Shown in pieces: positions 13,701 through 28,700 of a stretch of 64,000 nucleotides of DNA. Both the position numbers and the translations under genes were made by a program. Source of the stretch: Microbacterium sp. (lineage in GTDB: Bacteria > Actinomycetota > Actinomycetes > Actinomycetales > Microbacteriaceae); assembly GCF_017306415.1 (NCBI RefSeq), contig NZ_JAFKIL010000011.1. One strand, written 5' to 3'. The notes beneath the pieces were generated by a model, which was given only the letters and a program-made list of their open reading frames with translations, did not search any database and was not told the DNA's origin. The first letter of the stretch is position 1. Each line of letters opens with the position of its first letter.

Positions 13701-15293
13701 ATGGGGATCAATATTCGCCTGCTCTTCGTCGCGGGCGCTGTCGCGGCCATCGCGACGGTCGCTGCCGCTCCTGCGTGGGCGGCGCCGCCCCGATCCGAGG
13801 GCGGCAGTTCGCCCGCAGGACGCATCACTCAGATCGAGACCGCTCAGATCGAGACCGCTCAGATCGAGACGTCTCGGGTCGCGGCCGGCGACCCTGCCGA
13901 CCCTGCCGATCCTGCTGATCCTGCTCAGAGCGTCATCGCCCCCTTCCCCGACGGACTCACCAGAGTGTCGGGGGCATCTCGCATCGAGACCGCGATCGCC
14001 GCATCCGAGCGATACTCTCCGGGCGTCCCCGCGGTGTTCGTCGCCACGGCGACGAACTTCCCGGACGCGCTGTCAGCCGCCTCCGCCTCCGCGTTCGTGG
14101 GCGGTCCACTGCTCCTCACCACGAGAGACACGCTGCCGGCATCCGTGCTGGCCGAGGTTCAGCGGCTGACGCCCGAGCACATCTACGTCGTCGGCGGCAC
14201 GGGAGCCGTGTCCGATGACGTCCTCGAAGGGCTCGCCACAGTCGCACCGACGACGCGATTCGCGGGGAGCGACCGATACTCCACCGGGACCGCAATCGTC
14301 CAAGGCACCTTCATCCAGTCGACGACGGCGTTCATCGCCACCGGCGCATCCTTCCCGGATGCGCTCGCGGCGACCGGCGCAGCCGGCGCATCCCGATCGC
14401 CGGTGATCCTCGTCGATGGGCAGCGGTCGTCGCTCTCCGGCGATACGGTGAGCCTGCTTGACGAGCTGGGCGTCACCGACGTCGCGATCGCCGGAGGGAG
14501 CAGCGTGGTGTCCAGCGGCATCGAGCAGCAGCTCAGCCTCTCCGGGCGGAACGTGATCCGTTACGGGGGCGGAGACCGCTATTCCACCGCCGCGATCATC
14601 AACGCCGCGTTCTTCGCGCCGGGAACAGACACCGCGTTCCTCGCGACGGGCACGGCGTTCCCGGACGCTCTCGCCGGCGCCGCGCTCGCCGGCAGGCTGG
14701 GAGCACCCTTGTACGTGACGCAGCCGGCGTGCATGCCCGACGTCACCCGGGCGGCCCTCGCCGTGCTCGGCAACGTCAAGACCGTCGTCATGGGCGGCAC
14801 CGCAGCGGTCAGCGCGGCCAGCGCCGAGGGGCTCGGATGCCTCTCCGGCCCCGCCCCGACCATCACGGGAACCGTCCGCGTCGGCTCGACTCTGACGGCG
14901 CACGCCGGCACCTGGACCGACGGCACCTCGCTCACGTATCAGTGGTACGCGAACGGCGTGCCCCTCTCCGGCGCCACGGCCTCGACGCTCGGCCTCTCCA
15001 GCGCCGTGCAGGGGAAGCGGATCAGCGTGCGCGTCACGGGTGCGCAGACGGGATACGTCTCACTGACGAGGTCATCCAGCGCCACGGCGCCCGTCGCCGC
15101 GAAATCGACGCCACCGCCGCCACCGCCAGGTCCGCCTGCGAACCCCGGCGACTCGAAGAACTGCAGCGATTTCAGCACATGGAGGCAGGCGCAGTCCTGG
15201 TTCCTGACCTACTACCCGTACTACGGGGACGTTGCACGCCTGGACGCCGATCACGACGGGATCGCGTGCGAGTCGCTGCCCGGCGCACCCTGA
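13701..15293 (+). CDS. Secreted cell-wall-binding repeat 2 (CWB2 x3) protein with Ig-like and Excalibur domains
   Basis: Signal peptide; three RxxGxDRYxT / FPDALA repeats; PTITGTVRVGSTLTA..GTW module; C-terminal NCSDF...LDADHDGIACE. Confidence 0.85.
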   Translation: MGINIRLLFVAGAVAAIATVAAAPAWAAPPRSEGGSSPAGRITQIETAQIETAQIETSRVAAGDPADPADPADPAQSVIAPFPDGLTRVSGASRIETAIAASERYSPGVPAVFVATATNFPDALSAASASAFVGGPLLLTTRDTLPASVLAEVQRLTPEHIYVVGGTGAVSDDVLEGLATVAPTTRFAGSDRYSTGTAIVQGTFIQSTTAFIATGASFPDALAATGAAGASRSPVILVDGQRSSLSGDTVSLLDELGVTDVAIAGGSSVVSSGIEQQLSLSGRNVIRYGGGDRYSTAAIINAAFFAPGTDTAFLATGTAFPDALAGAALAGRLGAPLYVTQPACMPDVTRAALAVLGNVKTVVMGGTAAVSAASAEGLGCLSGPAPTITGTVRVGSTLTAHAGTWTDGTSLTYQWYANGVPLSGATASTLGLSSAVQGKRISVRVTGAQTGYVSLTRSSSATAPVAAKSTPPPPPPGPPANPGDSKNCSDFSTWRQAQSWFLTYYPYYGDVARLDADHDGIACESLPGAP

Positions 15294-18985: not shown

Positions 18986-19305
18986 GCCGTCCGTGGTCGC
19001 GGAGACGCAGGCGGCGTGGTCGCGAGATGACGCGGGAGAGGACCCGACGACAGTCCCCGCGTCGCACGCGGACAGATCGCGAGGTGACGCGAGCGAGAGG
19101 GAGGAGAGCAAGAGGGCCTTCGGGGAGCGCGGGTGGAGAACGCGCGAGATAGAGGAAGTCGGAGAGGCGGCGAGAGCGGCCGGCGTGCGATGCGTTCTGC
19201 GGCTCCACAATGAGGCAGAGGATTCACGACGCGATGACCCGGGATGCCGGGTTCCCCTCAACAGTAGCATGCCGCCCTCCGATCGCGGCCGGCGGGTCTA
19301 GGTTC

Positions 19306-19866
19306 ATGATCGTGACCACCCCCGCCCCCGCCGCATCCGCCGCATCCGCTCCGACCGCTCCGACCGCCCCGCCCGCGAACCTGCCGCTGCGTCAGCGTCC
19401 GTTCGACATCGTCTTCCTGGTGATCTTCTCCGCGTTCATCGTGACGTGCATCATCAGCGACTCCGTCGAAGGGCTGGGGCTCGACCAGGTCGCCGACTCG
19501 CCGAACATCCTCGTGCAGTGGAACTACTGGTACGCGAGCAATTTCGATCCGCTGTACCAGTCGCATCCGCTGTGGCTCCGGTTCATCAGCGGGACCTCGG
19601 CGTTCGTCTACATCGTGTTCTATGTGCTGCTGATCATCTCGATCGTGCGTGGATGGAACGGGATCCAGCTGCCGAGCGTCATCTACGCGACGATGATCAT
19701 CGCGCTCACCGGCATCCCGATCTTCGGTGTCGAGCTGTTCGGCGGACCCGGGCAGGCGACGCCGAACGTCGCGGTGTTCCTCGCGTTCAACCTGCCGTAC
19801 ATCGTGTTCCCGCTTCTGCTCCTGATCCGGATGCGCAAACCGCTGCCGTTCACACGGCGCTGGTAG
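19306..19866 (+). CDS. EXPERA/EBP-like membrane protein
   Basis: Four to five TM segments; WY...DPLY...P.W, ELFG, FLAFNLPYIVFP motifs typical of EXPERA (EBP/TM6SF/TMEM97) domains. Confidence 0.7.
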   Translation: MIVTTPAPAASAASAPTAPTAPPANLPLRQRPFDIVFLVIFSAFIVTCIISDSVEGLGLDQVADSPNILVQWNYWYASNFDPLYQSHPLWLRFISGTSAFVYIVFYVLLIISIVRGWNGIQLPSVIYATMIIALTGIPIFGVELFGGPGQATPNVAVFLAFNLPYIVFPLLLLIRMRKPLPFTRRW

Positions 19867-19969: not shown

Positions 19970-21550
19970 TCAGTCCTCGGTGCTGCGGCGGGGGCGACGC
20001 AGCAGGAGGGCGACGATGCCGCCGACGATCAGGGCACCCGCGCCCACCGGGACGACAGGGTTGATGCTGCCACCGGTCTCGGCGAGTCCGGCCGGCTCGG
20101 CGTTCGCCGGGCTCTCGGCGAGCACCGCGGTCGGGTGCGCGGGCTTCGGGTCCGCCGGGCTCTCCGCGTCGACGATGGTGCAGTGCTGCACGTCCTCGTA
20201 CACGGCGGGCTGGGCGGGGATCGCGGCGGAGATGAGCTCCGGCTCGCCGTAGACGGCGGCCTCCGCGGGGTGCTCGACGTCGACGTAGACCGCGTCGCTG
20301 GCGGGAACGTCGACGACCGTCTCGTCCCACGCCGGGGTCACGAGGTCGTACTCGACGTGCGACACCTCGGGCTGCTCCGGCGAGCCGGGCTGCGCGGCGA
20401 CATCCACGACCGTCTCGTCCCAGGCCGGGGTCACGACGACCTGCTCGTCGTAGGCGGGCGTCACGACGACCGTCTCGTCCCAGGCCGGGGTCACGACCAC
20501 CGTCTCGTCGTACGCGGGCGTCACGACCACCGTCTCGTCCCATGCGGGCGTCACGACCACCGTCTCGTCCCATGCGGGGTAGACGACGACCGTCTCGTCG
20601 TACGCGGGCGTCACGACCACCGTCTCGTCGTACGCGGGCGTCACGACCACCGTCTCGTCGTACGCCGGAGTCACGACCACGGTCTCGTCGTACGCGGGCG
20701 TCACGACGACCTGCTCGTCGTACGCCGCCTTGTCGACGACCACGCTGGTCGCCCAGTAGAAGTAGGAGCCGTTGCCCTCGCCCTGGTGCAGCACGACGCC
20801 GGTGTCCGACCCGTCGTACTTCTTGTTGTCGGCCTTCCAGTGCGACGGCTGCGTGACGGGCGTGTCGCCCCGCACCGGACCGCGGCCGCCGCCGACCCAC
20901 GAGTACCGGGTGTAGGCGGTGTGCGTCACGGCGTCGTGGTGCACCGTCTTGGTGACGGCGTCGTGGTGGACGACCTTCGTGACCGCGTCGTGGTGGACGA
21001 CCTTCGTGACCGCGTCGTGGTGGACGACCTTCGTGACCGCGTCGTGGTGGACGGGAGTGGTCACGGCGTCGTGGTGGACGACCTTCGTGACCGCATCGTG
21101 AGTGACGACCTTGGTCACGGCATCGTGGTGCACCGTGGTCGTGACTGCGGCGTGCGGGACCGTGGTGGTCACGGCGTCGTGGTGGACCGTCGTGGTCTCG
21201 GCGGCGTGGTGGACGACGTGCGAGACCTCGGCGACGGGCGCGACGGCCGGCACGTACGGCTGGTCGACGACGACCCGCTCGGCGTACTGAGCATCGTGGT
21301 GGACGACGTGCGACACCTCGGCGACGGCCGGCGTCACGAGCAGGCGCTCGACCCAGGCGGCGCGGGCCGGCGTGATGAGCGGCGCCGGGCCGTACACGGC
21401 GGGCTGGCCGGCGACGGCCGGGCTGACGAGCGTGTGGCTGATCGTGCAGGTGGACTCCGCCGGCGCGGCCTGAGCCGCCTGAGCCGGCAGGCCGATTCCG
21501 AACGCGAGTCCGCCGGCGAGAGCCGCGGTGGCGATGGTCTTGGTGAGCAT
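19970..21550 (-). CDS. Sortase-anchored surface protein with paired His-rich and acidic repeat arms
   Basis: Signal peptide; 11 x HHDAVTxxV-type; ~55-aa non-repetitive core; 11 x VVVTPA(W/Y)DET-type; LAETG + TM + RRPRR tail. Confidence 0.9.
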   Translation of the reverse strand: MLTKTIATAALAGGLAFGIGLPAQAAQAAPAESTCTISHTLVSPAVAGQPAVYGPAPLITPARAAWVERLLVTPAVAEVSHVVHHDAQYAERVVVDQPYVPAVAPVAEVSHVVHHAAETTTVHHDAVTTTVPHAAVTTTVHHDAVTKVVTHDAVTKVVHHDAVTTPVHHDAVTKVVHHDAVTKVVHHDAVTKVVHHDAVTKTVHHDAVTHTAYTRYSWVGGGRGPVRGDTPVTQPSHWKADNKKYDGSDTGVVLHQGEGNGSYFYWATSVVVDKAAYDEQVVVTPAYDETVVVTPAYDETVVVTPAYDETVVVTPAYDETVVVYPAWDETVVVTPAWDETVVVTPAYDETVVVTPAWDETVVVTPAYDEQVVVTPAWDETVVDVAAQPGSPEQPEVSHVEYDLVTPAWDETVVDVPASDAVYVDVEHPAEAAVYGEPELISAAIPAQPAVYEDVQHCTIVDAESPADPKPAHPTAVLAESPANAEPAGLAETGGSINPVVPVGAGALIVGGIVALLLRRPRRSTED

Positions 21551-22016: not shown

Positions 22017-25000
22017 TCAGCCCGTCGCGCGCACGGACGTGTGCGGACCCTCCGGCGCGGTGAGCGTCACCGTCGCCGACATCGTCGCTGCGAGCGGGAT
22101 GTAGATGTCGTAGAGCGCGCCACCGAGCTCGTCGCGGTACGCGAATCGGATGCCGCTCACCGGCGGCCGCGGCGGGAACGGGATGGGGAGCGGACGTCCG
22201 CCGTCGCGGCGGATGTCCGGCAGCGCGATCGAGGCCGTGAGCGTCGGACCGAGCGGCAGCCCCGGGAGGACCGGCAGCACGTGGGCGGTCCCCCCAACGG
22301 CGTCACGCATGGTCCCACCCCCTGCGACCGCACCGCCTGCGAGCGCACCCCCGGCGACGGCATCCCTCACGTGACCACCCAGCGGCGGCCCGATGACGAT
22401 CCGCCGCGCGGCCGACACCGAGAGCACGAACGGCGGCCGCGCCGTCCTGCCCTCGGTGCTCGACACGGTCACCACGACTGCCGTCGCCGAGGCGCGGGTG
22501 ACGGCGACCAGCTCGAGGTTCGGCGGCTGCGGAGCGGTCCATCCCGCCACGTGCGCGACCTGCTCGGCGGCGCGTCCGAGCGGGTCGACGAGTCGCAGGC
22601 CCACATCGACCGGCTGCGTCGGATCAGCCCGCGTGAACCACACGGCGAGCGGCGTCCGACCGCCCGCGCGCTCCCCCCGCACGACGACCGCCACTCCCGC
22701 TGCGGGCGCGGCCGGATCGACGGCGGCCAGAGCGGACAGCGGGACGAGGGATGCCGCGGCCATCCCCTCCTCGGTGAGGGCGGCCGCGGTCAGCCCGCCC
22801 ACGAGGTGCGGGCCGAAGTCGGTGTCGGCGATCGGAGCCGACGTGGAGGTCCGCGCGACCAGCACGCTGTGGTCGGGGGACGCCGATTCGACGACGAGCG
22901 GGTCGAGGTCCGGCGGACCCGCCGGCGGGACGCGAACGGTGACGATGTCGGACGCGGGCGAGAGGATGCCGCGCCACGCGCGCTCCGGGATGCCGCTGGT
23001 GTCGGGCTCGGCGACGGCGCGGACGTACCAGGTCTTCCAGCTCGGCTCCAGGGCGCCGGTCCAGCGACCCCGGAAGATCGGCTGCCCGGTGACGAGGTCG
23101 AGGTCCGCCGGCGCGGGCGGGTCCGCCGGGGCGGTGGCCGCCGCGAAGGCCGGTGCCCCCATCGAGTCGGCGCGACGGGCGGCGTCGAAGGCGTGCGTCC
23201 GGTACACCCGGAACCGCGAGACCGGCACGTCGCTGGGCACCTCGAGGTCGAGGTCGGCCCCCGCGACCGTCACCTCGGGCCGGGCGAGCGGCTGCGCGGG
23301 CTGCACGACGCGCGGCGCGATGAAGACCTGCGTGACGTCCTGGGCGGCGGTGTTGTACGGCCACGGCGAGTCCGCACCGCTCGGGGTCGTCGAGGTGACC
23401 ACGAAGAACTGGATGCCGGTCGTCCCGCGCGCGAGCGCGACATCCGCCTCCCGCCGGTCGCCCGGCACCTCGAGCACCCGCCGGAAGGCGAGCCGGCACT
23501 CTTCCGGGTGGGCGATGAGCAGCTGCCGCACCGCGACCAGCCGCGCGCCGGGGACGACGCCGGGCGCCGGCTCGGCGACACCGCAGCGCTCGCGCAGGTA
23601 CTGCTCGCTCGCCTGCCACACGACGAAGGACTTCACGTTCGCCGCGGCCGCGCCCCACACCACCCGCACGTGCGAGCGCCCGTCCGAGTCGGGCAGGCTC
23701 GCGAGCGGCACGCCCGGCAGCGGCGTCGTCGCGGGGATCACCGGAACCGGGCTCCCCACGGACGCGAGGATCGCGCGCGCGGGGTCGTCGGGCGCCCACG
23801 CCGTCGGACTGGGGCCGACGGCGAGCGCCCGCCGCGCCCAGACATCCACGCCCCACCGGTCGGTGGCCGAGAAGTCGAGGGCGGGGAGGTCCACGTGCAC
23901 CGCGAAGCGGCGCGGTTCGCCCTGGCCGGGACCGGCGGCCGCGGCGGGGATGCCGTTCTCGTCGAGCGGCGCGACCGTGCACCCGACGCCGGTCGGCACG
24001 TCGCCCGCGAACGAGAGCGAGAAGCTCCGGCGCACCGCGCCGGCCGGGACCGCCTCGGGCCCGATGCCCGTGGGCGGAGGCATCGCCGGCGAGGTCATCG
24101 GGTAGAGGACCGCGGAGAACTCGACCGAGGTCGTGGAGCGCTCCGCGAACTCGACGATGACGTCGACGTCGAGCGTCGCCGGGCACTGCGGCGCTCCGGC
24201 ATAGGTGGCGCGGAGCGTGAGGTTCGCGAGCATCGGCAGCGTCGCCGCCGGCTCGATGCCCGCGTACAGCGTCTCTGTCCACGGCGACCAGATGCCGTGC
24301 ACGTCGGAGAGCGCGGCCGCGTACAGCTCGTGCCGCCCGCCGCTGCCGAGCGGGATGTCGGTCACCGGATCCACGCTCGCCAGCAGCGATTCGCCGGGCG
24401 CGAGCGGCGGGACGTTGGGGATGCGCCATCCGTCGACGTCCGGTTCGAAGGCGAACAGCGGCTCGGCGATCCCCGCGCCCGATGTGGTGCGCACCGGCGC
24501 GAACTGGGTGACGTGCACGGTCGCCGCGTCCGCGGAGAGCGGCGGCCACGTCGACCGCACGTTCTCGCGCCACGGCGCGTCGAGCGCGGCGGGCGGCTGC
24601 AGCGAGTAGCGCGCAGCCGCGTAGGGCAGCGGGGCCGGCGTCTGACCGTGCATGACCGGGGGCGCGTAGGCGGCGTACTCCCCCGCGGGCAGCGGCACCT
24701 CCACGTTCCACCCGGGGCCGGAGGCGCGGAACACCGGCCCGGCCGCGTAGGTCGCCGTCACGAGGAACTCGGGCGCGGGTGGCAGCGCGACGGCCGTGGT
24801 CCGCGCCGTGCGGAACGGATACGCCGTCCCGAAGCCCAGCGCGAGGTTGGCGAACGGGTCGCTGACGACGGGGATCGACAGCAGCGGCCACGGCGCCGCG
24901 TCGATGGACGCCGGCCGTCCAGGAGGTCCCGCCACGGGGGTGGGGTTCGTCACCCGCGCCTGCTCGTTCTCGGGAAGACCCGGCGCGTAGAGTCCGGCGA

Positions 25001-25784
25001 TCCGGCCCAGCAGCTCGGCGGCAAGGCGATCGACGAACGCCGCGGGGTCCGGTGCCTTCCACGTCGGTGCGGCCACGCCGGAGGGAAGGGTCGCCGCCCA
25101 GCCGACCGGGGGCGCGCCGCGGGAGATGCGGTCGAGGGCCGCATCCCGTGCCGGCATGGTCGCGGTCACGAGGCCCTGCTCGTACCCGTCGTAGTCGGTG
25201 CCGGGGATGCCGTCCTTGGGCACGGGCAGACCCACGTACTCGATCGGCTCCCAGTCGGGGGCATTGACGATGTCGTCGAGAGACACGATGCGCGTGACCG
25301 GATCGACTGCGTTCGTGATGATCGCGCACGTGGCGCCCGGGGTACGCAGCTCGACGTGCGCCGTGGGGCTGCCGGTGCCGGAGGTGCCGATCGCGGTGAC
25401 GGACTCCTTCGCGCCCGTGCGCCAGCACAGGCGCACCACCACCGGCTGGGACGGATCCGCGACGCCGCAGTCGATGACGACGCGGCCCGCCGGCGTTCCC
25501 CAGTCGACGCGCAGCGCACCGTCTCCGGTGGGCTGCACGGCGACGTCGGCGGGCCGCGCATCCGTGGAGGTCGCCGGACGGCGCCACACGGTGAAGACAC
25601 CGTGCGGCACCCCCAGGTCCCCGTGGCATGCCCACGCGAGGCGCAGGGTGAGCCCGCGGGATGCCGCAGGGTCGCCCTGGCCGTCGGCGGGCGGGAGCTG
25701 CTGCCCGTGCGACTTCGCCACGGCGGCCCAGTCGATTCCGACCGCCTCCGCGCGGAAGAACCCGGGGTTCGGGATGCGGGCCAT
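22017..25784 (-). CDS. Large hypothetical protein (1255 aa), beta-rich, probable Ig/FN3-like modules
   Basis: ATG 25784 overlaps the upstream stop (TGATG); MARIPNPGFF...; LSDVHGIWSPW and VRAV...SPASD segments resemble FN3-like strand ends; no signal peptide. Confidence 0.85.
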   Translation of the reverse strand: MARIPNPGFFRAEAVGIDWAAVAKSHGQQLPPADGQGDPAASRGLTLRLAWACHGDLGVPHGVFTVWRRPATSTDARPADVAVQPTGDGALRVDWGTPAGRVVIDCGVADPSQPVVVRLCWRTGAKESVTAIGTSGTGSPTAHVELRTPGATCAIITNAVDPVTRIVSLDDIVNAPDWEPIEYVGLPVPKDGIPGTDYDGYEQGLVTATMPARDAALDRISRGAPPVGWAATLPSGVAAPTWKAPDPAAFVDRLAAELLGRIAGLYAPGLPENEQARVTNPTPVAGPPGRPASIDAAPWPLLSIPVVSDPFANLALGFGTAYPFRTARTTAVALPPAPEFLVTATYAAGPVFRASGPGWNVEVPLPAGEYAAYAPPVMHGQTPAPLPYAAARYSLQPPAALDAPWRENVRSTWPPLSADAATVHVTQFAPVRTTSGAGIAEPLFAFEPDVDGWRIPNVPPLAPGESLLASVDPVTDIPLGSGGRHELYAAALSDVHGIWSPWTETLYAGIEPAATLPMLANLTLRATYAGAPQCPATLDVDVIVEFAERSTTSVEFSAVLYPMTSPAMPPPTGIGPEAVPAGAVRRSFSLSFAGDVPTGVGCTVAPLDENGIPAAAAGPGQGEPRRFAVHVDLPALDFSATDRWGVDVWARRALAVGPSPTAWAPDDPARAILASVGSPVPVIPATTPLPGVPLASLPDSDGRSHVRVVWGAAAANVKSFVVWQASEQYLRERCGVAEPAPGVVPGARLVAVRQLLIAHPEECRLAFRRVLEVPGDRREADVALARGTTGIQFFVVTSTTPSGADSPWPYNTAAQDVTQVFIAPRVVQPAQPLARPEVTVAGADLDLEVPSDVPVSRFRVYRTHAFDAARRADSMGAPAFAAATAPADPPAPADLDLVTGQPIFRGRWTGALEPSWKTWYVRAVAEPDTSGIPERAWRGILSPASDIVTVRVPPAGPPDLDPLVVESASPDHSVLVARTSTSAPIADTDFGPHLVGGLTAAALTEEGMAAASLVPLSALAAVDPAAPAAGVAVVVRGERAGGRTPLAVWFTRADPTQPVDVGLRLVDPLGRAAEQVAHVAGWTAPQPPNLELVAVTRASATAVVVTVSSTEGRTARPPFVLSVSAARRIVIGPPLGGHVRDAVAGGALAGGAVAGGGTMRDAVGGTAHVLPVLPGLPLGPTLTASIALPDIRRDGGRPLPIPFPPRPPVSGIRFAYRDELGGALYDIYIPLAATMSATVTLTAPEGPHTSVRATG

Positions 25785-28700
25785 CAGTCCTCCTCCTCCC
25801 ACGGCGCGGCCACGAGCGGGACCGACAGCAGCGGAGTGCGCGCCTCGGCGCTGCCCGCGGGTCCGTCGAGGTCGGTCACGAGGTCGAGGCGCAGGCGCGT
25901 CCCGCGCGCGTTCGGACCGAGGAAGGCGATCGCCCGCGTCCCGCCGGGGCCCGTGGCGACGCGCGAGACCGGCGCGTCCGGAAGACCCGGATCGGCCGGG
26001 CCCACCGCAGCGGCCACCGTGAGCCACGGCCACGGCACGCTCGCCCAGTAGTGGTGCGTCGGGTCCGGGTCGGTCGCAGCGGCGTCCACCTTCTGCGGGG
26101 TCGGGCGGGACCGCACGATCTGCTCGCTCGACTCGACGACGACGGCGACGGGCTGCGGGACGGGGTCGGTCGTCCACAGCACGTGCACCGCGGGGAACCC
26201 CGGGACCTGGGGTGCGCCGAGCCCCGCCTGCTCGAACGCGTCGTCGAGGACGGGACCCGGCACGCTCCCGACGAGCGGGGCCAGTGCGGAGGGTGTCAGG
26301 ATGCCGCGCCCCTCCCCGCGGGACCCGCCCACGAACGCCGCGAGGTCGGCGGCATCCGCGAACCGGCCGGTGCGGAACGGCACCCGGTAGACGATGTCGC
26401 CCGTGCCGCCGGCACCCTTCCTGCGCGCGTGCACGTCGAGGAGGTACTCGGTGAGCGGCTCGAAGATGTAGGGCAGCGTCACGGTGAAGGTGCTGTGGTC
26501 GAAGCCGGAGGCGTCGAGGCATCCGAGGTCCACGACCAGCCCCTCGACCGCCTCCCGCCAGGGAGTCGTCACCCCGTACGGGTCGATCGCGGTCGCGTAG
26601 GCCGACCCGCCGACCAGCGGAACCTGCGGCACGGGTTCATCGGGCTGATCGGCGAGCCGGGGATGGATGCCGGATGCCGCGTGGACGACGGCGTACAGCT
26701 CGAGGCCGTACGCGTCGAACAGCGCGGCGACCCGCTGCGACGAGAACGTGATGCTCACCCCGGCGTGGGTGAAGACGCCGGTCTCGTCCGCCGCCGGGAC
26801 CGTGCCGAGGACCCACGGCGACAGGTCGGTGACGACGTCCGAAGGAACGGTCGCGGGGGCCGTCGTGCGGAACCGGAAGCTCTGCGTCTTCGTCGACGTG
26901 TGGTCGCCGGGGAGATCCCCCGGGCCGAGGGTCGCCGCGGGCGGCTGACCCTGGGGCGGGCTGTGCGGGTCTCCGGTCACGGGCAGCCACGTCGCCTGCC
27001 AGTCGACCTCGACGGCGTACGTCGTTCCCGGCGTGAGCAGCGGCTCGCTGCCCGCCGGCTGGGTGAGCGCCGTGTTCAGCGCCTGCTGATCGGCGTTCAG
27101 TGTCGACGTGTCCCAGTCGTACCGGCGGGTCTCGGACGCGAGGACCGCCTCGACCGCGACCACGTAGTACGCCGGGAAGGACGTGGTGCTGCGCCGGCGG
27201 TCCCACCCGGTGACGATGCGCGCCGCCTTGCCCCCGAGCCCGTCGAGACGCACGTAGACGGCCACGAGCTTCTCGGTCGACATGAGCCGACCGGCGAGGT
27301 GGCCCGCGCGGCTGACCGGCTCCGCCCAGGGTCCCGCGGGGTCGATCCAGGTGCCGGGGATCGGCGTCGGCGACGGCACCAGGTCCGACCCGTCCACGCG
27401 GTGCGCCTCGAGCTCCGATCCGTCCTCTGCGCGGGCGGACACGGTGAGCCCGTACTCCAGGCCGATCCGCGGCATCAGCATCAGCAGGCCCACGCTCTCG
27501 AAGCCGTCGCCGTCGCCGGGATTGCCCGCCGCGAACGACACGCCGTCGGCCAGGCGGTCGGGGGTGAAGCCGGATGCCGCCCACGCCTCCTCCACGAGCT
27601 TGCGCGCCAGGTCGTCGCCCCCGGGCGCCGGGTCGGCGAGGTCGTGTTTCGGCGAACGCAGGATCTCGCCGAAGCATCCGGCATCCTGCACCGCCGAACG
27701 CGACCCGGTCGCCGCGGCGGCCCGTGCGAACGCCGACACCGTGGCCGGATCCCACGCCGTCGCCTGCTCCGCGGCGGGGTGGTCGTAGAGGGATCCGCCT
27801 GCCGCGGCGTGGGCGTCGAGGCCCGCGAGCGCGGACGCTCCGGCGAGCCGCCCGCGCAGGCTCACGCCCGCCGCGGGGCTCTGCGCCCAGCGGGACATCG
27901 CCGCCCGCGAGTCGCGGACCGACCGGTCGTGGCAGGGCACGGCATCCCCGACCACGACCGCGGGATCCGTCCCCTGAAGCTGATCGACCGCCGGCGCGAT
28001 GCGCCACGGCTCGGTCACGGTCATCCCGGTCCGCACGGGGGCGGTGCGCACCGTGCCGGGAGCGTCGGGCCACGGGATGCCGGCGAGCGCCCACCCCGCG
28101 GGGCTCGGCCCGAGCGGCTGCCCATCGAACGTCCACAGCACCGAAGCGGGCGCGGCCGCGGTGGCGCAGATCGTGCCCCACCGCTCGTCGACCGTGGTCG
28201 TGAGGGCCTCGCCGCACGGCACGGCGGCCGGATGCGGGTCGGGAGTCCAGTCCAGCAGGGCGAGCTGCAGCGACATCGCCTGCGCGTCGCTCTTCTGCAC
28301 CCACCACACGCTCGCCGCCGACTCGCCCGCAGGCGTCGGGGGGATGAGGGCGCCGCCGGTGAGCCGGACGGCGGTGACCTCGTACCGCCACCAGTGGTCG
28401 CCGAGCTGCATCCACGGATTGGCGGGAGCGCCCCCGTAGGTTCCGAGCACGCCGCCGAGGATGTCGGCCTGGTCCGTCTTCGCGAGGGTGAGGAACGACA
28501 CCACCGGGATGGCGTCGATCGGCACGTCGTCCGGGACGGCACCGCCGCCCTCGACGGCCTTCGCGATGACGCCGTCGACGGGCTCGCCCACCCCGGCGCC
28601 TTCGAGCAGGACGTGGATTGTGCGGGTGACCAGGCCGACGCCGGTGACGAGGTCCTGCACGGTCGGCGGCACGATGCCGGGGTCGTCGCCGATCGTGAGC

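Follow-up and report, generated by a model that had tools for sequence, protein, structure and literature searches.

The antigen I/II proteins (SpaP/P1, SspB, BspA) are sortase-anchored proteins in which an A and a P repeat region flank the V domain, intertwine and lift it, in SpaP by more than 50 nm (PMC7732690). In the stalks of periscope and fibrillar adhesins (SasG/Aap G5-E, Sgo_0707 SHIRT, Rib), both length and tip display vary with the number of repeats (PMC8201768, PMC9704523). Here we describe the gene of a putative surface protein, P0001, found in a stretch of 64,000 nucleotides from Microbacterium sp. (RefSeq assembly GCF_017306415.1, contig NZ_JAFKIL010000011.1; the whole stretch is referred to as the window). 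The ectodomain of P0001 is probably a single intrachain two-stranded antiparallel ribbon, in which an arm made of His-rich units is zipped on an arm made of acidic/aromatic units.

Antigen I/II is the nearest functional analogue of such an architecture, because it also has two different arrays that flank a tip and pair with each other, the chain being folded back into a long stalk. However, the stalk of antigen I/II is an alanine-rich alpha-helix lying on the proline-rich P region, followed by globular C-terminal domains, while the units of P0001 are of 9 or 10 residues and predicted to be beta, with His facing Trp/Asp/Glu, a pair of Cys at the base and no further domains. The topology alone is alike; no sequence or Pfam relationship connects the two, and the module of P0001 is also found outside adhesins. 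With the periscope proteins, P0001 shares a wall anchor, in its case a predicted one, and a stalk whose length would vary with repeat number, here from 3 to 11 array rungs among orthologues. A periscope stalk, however, is one head-to-tail array of folded domains, where one slippage changes the length, whereas P0001 would need matched changes in two arrays; in addition, a single unit of P0001 is much too small to fold by itself, and the units match no stalk-domain family. A third likeness, limited to local geometry, is with the stems of pore-forming toxins (aerolysin, lysenin, epsilon-toxin, iota/CDTb), which are very long two-stranded antiparallel hairpins but exist only as staves of an oligomeric membrane barrel and carry no repeat code. 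Nothing suggests that P0001 is itself a toxin: there is no cap or receptor domain, a sortase anchor is present, and the Foldseek alignments, which were not significant, covered only the stem hairpin.

P0001 is encoded by a minus-strand open reading frame (ORF, 19970..21550) for 526 residues without internal stops (Table 1). The first-pass annotation, made from the sequence letters, had described a signal peptide, Cys35, a set of outer motifs, 11 + 11 repeats around a core, a second Cys and an LAETG motif followed by a transmembrane segment and RRPRR; every one of these elements is present in the ORF. The N-terminal base contains the motifs QPAVYG, LITPA and EVSH, and EVSH, AVYG and QPAVY recur in the C-terminal base. 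Cysteine occurs exactly twice, at residues 35 and 457, the latter being the Cys of VQHCT. Tandem Repeats Finder describes the two arrays as period 27 × 10.7 copies (20925-21214) and period 30 × 10.6 copies (20409-20725), with 79-85% DNA identity between repeat units. Variants among the His units of the N arm are VHHAAETTT, VPHAAVTTT, VTHDAVTKV and VHHDAVTTP, and the first unit of the C arm, VVVDKAAYDEQ, is 11 residues long, the remaining ones 10. Two further rungs can be recognized in the non-repeat base, where W66 is opposite H427 and HH84-85 is opposite W408, which, added to the 11 rungs of the arrays, brings the total to 13, with complementary units facing each other throughout. In the outermost rung the unit types are exchanged, Trp belonging to the N side and His to the C side; therefore, the rule is complementarity, not 'His arm first'.

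It should be noted that two irregular units, VHHDAVTTP (residues 158-166) and VVVYPAWDET (Tyr for Thr, residues 321-330), are both the sixth from the tip. The sole His unit ending in Pro and the sole acidic unit with Tyr for Thr would thus face each other, and the same pair is present in the nearest database protein, P0002 (96% identical, labelled Microbacterium sp.). Coming from a single lineage, this coincidence is only suggestive.

An expectation that follows from a zipped ribbon, and the check proposed beforehand in the first-pass annotation, is that the numbers of units in the two arms co-vary among homologues. The comparison included 18 orthologues: P0001, 15 proteins from the database and two from a genome scan, one of which is from the isolate Microbacterium sp. 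RU33B. The units of P0224 were counted by hand, and its arm lengths match those of the other 8/8 protein. The number of N-arm units equals the number of C-arm units in 16 of the 18 orthologues over a range from 3 to 11, with eight proteins at 4/4, two each at 11/11, 8/8 and 5/5, and one each at 7/7 and 3/3 (P0012). When the two base rungs are included, the orthologues range from 5 to 13 rungs. In a maximum-likelihood tree built on the non-repeat parts, members with 3/3, 8/8 and 4/4 units fall in one clade (support 97/98), and members with 8/8, 7/7, 5/5 and 11/11 units are on other branches. Because different equal counts are scattered over this tree, a matched change in both arms, as judged from the sequences, must have happened at least five times independently. 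The earlier proposal that a change in length needs both arms, unlike in periscope adhesins, agrees with these coordinated changes, and the equal counts are best explained as the product of selection on the protein.

A mechanical origin in the DNA was also considered, namely that the arrays form an inverted DNA repeat that gene conversion or palindrome-templated repair keeps in step. Inverted matches between C-arm and N-arm units do exist (the best one is 25 nt at 92%), and the His unit, when translated in one of its antisense frames, gives VTASWW, which resembles VTPAWD. The mean best complementarity, however, is 14.75/24 nt, against 14.77 in the direct orientation, 14.94 +/- 0.25 after codon-order shuffles and 15.41 after synonymous resampling, and the best window has p ~0.08. 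Moreover, the best pair is not mirrored, its members being the N unit that is 9th from the tip and the 2nd-3rd C unit, and the periods of the two arrays are different (27 vs 30 nt). A palindromic or sense-antisense origin was accordingly discarded as the cause of the equal counts, because the inverted matches are no better than the controls. Since the arms have no excess of inverted repeats over chance, equal counts are not a by-product of a DNA palindrome, and we find this explanation hardly credible.

The mirror relationship is not limited to the arrays. All 18 orthologues have exactly two Cys, and the distances measured from them are invariant in the whole set: 31 residues from the N-terminal Cys to the Trp of AAWxE and 30 from the His of VEHPA to the C-terminal Cys; 50 from the N-terminal Cys to the lone HH and 49 from the lone WDE to the C-terminal Cys. 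From the N-terminal Cys to the first array His unit, and from the last array Trp unit to the C-terminal Cys, there are 80 residues in each case, again in the 18 orthologues. In those with equal counts, the arms differ in length, the C arm having a few residues more and, on top of these, about one more for each rung (units of 10 residues, against 9 in the N arm).

The same organization was then found in a much wider set of proteins. An exhaustive HMMER search, with E-values up to 0.001, yielded 570 representative proteins, many of which are composed of an arm of His units, a tip and an arm of Trp/Asp/Glu units. When the units of 23 diverse proteins were counted by hand, the arms were equal in 22. 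For a larger sample, proteins were reduced to strings of His (H) and Trp (W) units by a crude regular expression, which gave 169 proteins with a hairpin-like layout. In these, the lengths of the two arms are correlated (r = 0.80); they are exactly equal in 66 proteins against 19.8 expected, a number that 0/10,000 permutations reached, and within one unit of each other in 132 of the 169, as counted by the same crude expression. With its relatives taken into account, the equality seen in P0001 thus lies far outside chance.

Arms containing both types of unit are more informative about the pairing rule. Antiparallel and parallel, complementary and like-with-like arrangements were scored, each score being maximized over its own best split point. 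In the mixed-unit arms, antiparallel complementarity wins over the parallel arrangement in 63 cases, with 44 ties and 3 losses, and complementarity wins over like-with-like pairing in 93 cases, with 3 losses. Examples of the strings are WWHHHHHHHH/HHWWWWWWWW (P0026), WWHHHHWWW/HHWWWWHHH (P0054) and an 18/18 protein (P0131). As read from these strings, the succession of units along one arm complements that along the other in the antiparallel sense, with His units facing Trp/Asp/Glu units. The complementarity of HH and W/Y-D-E units, originally proposed for P0001 alone, thus holds as a rule across about 170 diverse proteins, with either order of the arms and with different tips: the His arm comes first in 94 proteins and the Trp arm in 68, and the tips of different subfamilies are unrelated, some being Trp-rich as in P0001, some having a CxxC...CxxC pattern, and others being of still other kinds. 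Many of the short members have a base of the form Cys-x3-5-AWTE ... HPAV(V/T)-Cys.

The module is joined to CW_7, SLH, PG_binding_1, choline-binding and ChW wall-binding domains as well as to sortase signals, and it is also present on extracytoplasmic function (ECF) sigma factors, including P0033, to which it is connected by a membrane helix, and on a protein with transglutaminase and leucine-rich repeat (LRR) domains. From its sequence distribution, therefore, the module is widespread, with many tips and anchors, it recurs in many envelope proteins of Gram-positive bacteria, and P0001 is not a one-off protein. Two members resembling wall-anchored proteins, P0017 and P0019, have the reversed order, with 13 AYDEQV units, a different tip and 12-13 HHDAVYTTV units, and two Cys near the ends. 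The protein with additional domains, P0122 (1126 residues), is composed of 25 His units, a CxxC tip, 7-8 acidic units, the transglutaminase-like and LRR domains and 22 further acidic units, and ends with CSSCG. Its His units do not equal the sum of its two acidic arrays (25 vs approximately 29-30), and this simple relationship was discarded; P0122 could represent a nested stalk with inserted domains, or its N-terminus could be incomplete.

Structure prediction was performed with AlphaFold2 on P0001 together with its 15 orthologues, and a second model was obtained for the 3/3 orthologue P0012. The model of P0001 is all-beta, and its 17 N-half strands are mirrored in order and length by 17 C-half strands, including those of odd length (3, 10 and 12-13 residues). 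The predicted local distance difference test score (pLDDT) is 83-92 in the base, and it is also high next to the tip. The outermost strand pair, E34-43 and E450-458, places Cys35 opposite Cys457. In the model of P0012, 9 strands mirror 9, the block-mean pLDDT is approximately 70-94 over residues 30-300, and Cys30 is opposite Cys300; the tip is predicted as a short helix and two short strands (pLDDT 68-80). The two Cys were expected to be adjacent, and in both models they do occupy opposed positions of the outermost strand pair. As to the antiparallel zipped ribbon itself, the all-beta mirrored models, the co-varying counts and the complementarity rule all speak for it, while the pairing of the arms is deduced from the models.

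Foldseek searches against the PDB found no significant match for either model (E >= 0.03, template-modelling (TM) score <= 0.1). The top entries for both were the long hairpin stems of the lysenin, aerolysin, epsilon-toxin, iota and CDTb pores, and phage tail knobs were also present. The root-mean-square deviations (rmsd) were 45-100 Å over 200-350 columns, values which, for the models at least, indicate a very elongated shape. Among the predicted viral structures of BFVD, three matches to the hairpin model were significant, besides a 'membrane protein' of Microbacterium phage FuzzBuster (E = 0.003); the phage proteins resembling the model were A0A8T8JDA9 (E = 4e-8), a phage protein with a PA14 domain, and this FuzzBuster protein. 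A tblastn search of P0001 against phage genomes gave no match, probably because of low-complexity masking.

These models bear on two other ways in which the units could pair. If the arms paired within one chain but in a compact or supercoiled beta structure, such as face-to-face meander sheets or a solenoid, additional repeats would change the bulk of the protein rather than its reach; strands of 7-8 residues separated by 2 non-beta residues, as assigned by DSSP, could indeed describe a meander. However, 'DA' and 'PA', where the strands are interrupted, are poor sequences for tight turns, the strand lengths of one arm, odd ones included, are mirrored in the other, and the large Foldseek rmsd together with long hairpins as best matches point to an elongated model. 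We consider a compact fold quite improbable.

Pairing between chains is a different matter, in that antiparallel dimers, fibres or cell-to-cell zippers would select for equal counts and antiparallel complementarity in the same way, the monomeric hairpin being then a storage form or non-existent. A lone two-stranded ribbon, moreover, exposes a Val-rich face, and the sole resemblances at the level of fold are to hairpins that depend on an oligomeric barrel for their stability. Against this, a short tip and Cys located at exactly mirrored distances in all orthologues fit closure within one chain, the two arms are always part of the same polypeptide, in either order, and AlphaFold2 builds a single chain confidently for the short orthologue P0012. 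Association between chains as the primary mode of pairing therefore appears unlikely, and the intrachain ribbon is retained as the probable structure in what follows.

Sequence databases contain no family to which P0001 could be assigned, in agreement with the first-pass annotation, which had not recognized the architecture as a named family. In Pfam, residues 325-379, which belong to the 10-residue acidic repeats, match Spt5 CTD (PF12815; 38.5 vs a cut-off of 25.4). This was rejected as an identification and considered a match in composition only, P0001 being a secreted bacterial protein without NGN or KOW domains. Otherwise, Pfam returned a sub-threshold Mo-co_dimer match across the tip only, and no stalk-domain or antigen I/II family; NCBIfam recognized the sorting signal alone, just under the cut-off; and a sequence search of the PDB gave no related chain, but only designed beta-propellers with E > 0.01. 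A profile built from 15 diverse tips found no relative in the PDB (best E = 2) or in Pfam, and a database search with the tip alone returned the same orthologues only. The pattern of invariant Trp, Pro, Gly and Phe of the tip extends to distant proteins and is shared with low-GC bacteria, and its conservation suggests, at the sequence level, either a binding function or a role as folding nucleus. In the literature searched, the unit sequences are absent, apart from unrelated PDZ peptides that match them, and searches by concept were also empty. A hairpin module made of complementary repeats thus seems to be undescribed.

The Pfam match to a family of disordered nonapeptide repeats, as Spt5 CTD is, raises the question of whether the repeats are simply independent low-complexity spacers or metal-binding tracts, unpaired, with equal numbers arising by coincidence or as an assembly artefact. 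His-rich and Asp/Glu-rich tracts often bind metals, and the centres of the arrays have low confidence in the model of P0001. It is difficult, however, to reconcile independent spacers with equality in 16/18 orthologues over a range of 3-11 after several independent changes, with the permutation result (0/10,000), and with a complement rule that holds in mixed-unit arms; furthermore, beta-branched residues are abundant in the repeats, and P0012, the short orthologue, is confidently predicted to form strands. Unpaired repeats are therefore very improbable.

A number of points weigh against the intrachain ribbon. The arms are unequal in two of the 18 orthologues, P0003 (10/7) and P0010 (4/3). The gene of P0003 (ENA ERZ27263087, contig k141_99934, L003:3001-4434) comes from the same strain, in a short-read metagenome assembly made with MEGAHIT; compared with the window, it shows two in-frame deletions, one of 27 nt that removes a single His unit and one of 120 nt that removes four acidic units, and otherwise 0 mismatches in the gene and 1.5 kb of flank. 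The 10/7 form may result from a collapse in the short-read assembly, or it may be a minority variant that really has mismatched arms. In the wider family, exact equality is reached in only 66/169 proteins, in counts that the regular expression makes noisy, and the sequences are related, so that the counts are not independent events. As regards the models, pLDDT is <50 in the middle of the 11-unit arrays of P0001, as would be expected where near-identical units leave the register of the prediction ambiguous; the predicted TM scores are low (0.23 and 0.28); AlphaFold2, when given 15-16 sequences, can predict hairpins too readily for repeats; and the pairing of arm with arm is inferred from mirrored DSSP elements, not seen as contacts. 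To the best of our knowledge, no solved structure offers a precedent for a free two-stranded ribbon tens of nm long, which may need lateral association for stability. Finally, expression, wall anchoring and the disulphide bond of P0001 are all predictions made from its sequence.

The intrachain ribbon could be assembled as follows. The exported chain would fold back at the tip, and His and Trp/Asp/Glu units would zip in antiparallel register between residues 35 and 457, with the 7-residue strand 'VTxxVHH' running against the 8-residue strand '(W/Y)DETVVVT' and a shared kink where the invariant Ala of HHxA and that of xAWDE meet. In each rung, W/Y-D-E would present its indole or phenol and its two carboxylates to HH, and the Val/Thr-rich remainder would supply the beta propensity. 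At the open end, beside the wall linker, a putative Cys35-Cys457 disulphide would close the structure; Actinobacteria are known to fold exported proteins oxidatively. A class E sortase would then link the Thr of LAETG to the wall. Stacked on one another, the 13 rungs would give a stalk of approximately 50 nm if straight, as estimated from about 180 residues per arm, and stalk length would be set by the number of rungs, at about 3 nm each, changing only if both arms change together. The Trp/Tyr-rich tip of 58 residues would be displayed at the far end, its ligand being, as a guess, a glycan or an aromatic surface.

A bolder interpretation, which we put forward as possible but rather doubtful, is that the His unit and the Trp/Asp/Glu unit constitute a two-letter pairing code for polypeptides, like base pairs in the stem of an RNA. 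Such a code would permit any number of rungs and swappable unit types, and would carry varied tips (Trp-rich, CxxC zinc-type and others) on tunable stalks in adhesins, wall-bound lysins, S-layer-homology proteins and membrane-tethered sigma factors. Since two His of each rung would lie against Asp/Glu and an indole, the zipper might also open and close in response to pH or divalent metals, and an opened arm might pair with another molecule or cell, yielding a switchable device for adhesion or signalling.

The C-terminal sorting signal of P0001 is complete, with LAETG (489-493), the helix (504-516) and RRPRR, and the orthologues have LA[EQLY]TG; the NCBIfam sorting-signal models remain just below the cut-off (NF058582, 25.2 bits vs 27). 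LAxTG is the signal of class E sortases. Two sortase genes are located on another contig of the genome, one of class E (233 bits, cut-off 160) and one of class C. Judging from these sequences, P0001 is most likely secreted by Sec and attached to peptidoglycan at LAETG by the class E sortase of the genome. In its signal peptide, LAETG motif, hydrophobic helix, basic tail and same-genome class E sortase, P0001 is like the class E sortase substrates of Actinobacteria (LAxTG); this likeness covers its anchoring alone, not its ectodomain. The signal peptide appears by eye to be of the Sec type, with a basic start, a hydrophobic core, AQA motifs and the end ...LPAQAAQA, and its residues G13-G14-L15-F17-G18-I19-P22-A23-A25 are invariant among orthologues.

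Table 1. Features of the P0001 gene and protein; nucleotide positions refer to the window and residue numbers to P0001.
Feature	Residues	Position	Strand	Remarks
Whole gene	526 codons + stop	19970..21550	-	single copy in 3.76-Mb genome
Signal peptide (MLTKTIATAALAGGLAFGIGLPAQAAQA)	1 to ~28	21467..21550	-	read from sequence
Cys35, N-side half of predicted base clamp	35	21446..21448	-	invariant in 18/18 orthologues; strand E34-43 opposite E450-458
N-side base: swapped rung AAW66VE, lone HH84-85 rung, Pro/Ala-rich bridges	36-112	21215..21445	-	pLDDT 83-92
N arm: 11 nine-residue His units VHHDAVTxx	113-211	20918..21214	-	predicted 7-residue strands, break at 'DA'
Tip: small Trp/Tyr-rich domain (YTRYSW...TP.T.P..W...KKYDGS...GNGSYFYW)	212-269	20744..20917	-	W, P, W, G, G, F, W invariant in distant proteins
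C arm: 11 acidic/aromatic units VVVTPA(W/Y)DET	270-380	20411..20743	-	predicted 8-residue strands, break at 'PA'
C-side base: lone W408DE rung, swapped VEH427PAE rung	381-456	20183..20410	-	mirrors N-side base; pLDDT 85-91
Cys457, C-side half of predicted base clamp	457	20180..20182	-	invariant in orthologues
Pro/Ala/Glu-rich wall-spanning linker	458-488	20087..20179	-	predicted disordered, pLDDT <50; length and sequence vary among orthologues
LAETG sorting motif	489-493	20072..20086	-	LAxTG in all orthologues
Hydrophobic helix and basic tail RRPRRSTED	494-526	19973..20071	-	helix 504-516 in AlphaFold2 model

The gene was found in 3 of 301 Microbacterium species genomes. Its neighbourhoods in the different genomes are unrelated to one another and gave no operon clue for the orthologues; because these neighbourhoods differ, the P0001 gene behaves as an accessory surface gene, and it is a rare one. 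A scan of the gene for promoters and terminators was uninformative. The G+C content of the window is high (~70-77%), and those long ORFs that lie antisense to the gene or in another frame are shadows of the kind usual in high-GC sequence.

In the window, the convergent neighbour (19210-19866, plus strand) encodes an EXPERA (EBP/TMEM97-like) membrane protein, whose family is more familiar from the sterol isomerases of eukaryotes. Two very large overlapping ORFs, 22017-26522 (-) and 25784-32680 (-), for up to 1501 and 2298 residues, lie immediately upstream of the gene and share its strand. Neither contains any Pfam family; the 22017-26522 ORF is also called in the same-strain metagenome contig, again without a Pfam match. 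An envelope protein with three CWB2 cell-wall-binding domains and a C-terminal Excalibur calcium-binding domain is encoded at 13701-15293 (+). Between 42001 and 46000, the G+C fraction is 0.60-0.63 compared with ~0.72 elsewhere, which suggests a foreign island.

If the intrachain ribbon is correct, P0001 would exemplify a new structural principle, in which a stalk is one giant hairpin zipped by two complementary repeats and not a chain of folded domains. A short modular beta zipper of programmable length, possibly sensitive to pH or metals, would also become available to protein engineers. A new family model for annotation could be built on the two kinds of unit together with the mirror rule, and a large set of unannotated Gram-positive repeat proteins, along with some phage proteins, would find an explanation. 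With regard to the evolution of the family, its members would offer a clear case of compensatory change at the level of whole repeats, both arms having to change together, and their stalk length would vary according to a rule that differs from that of the periscope proteins.

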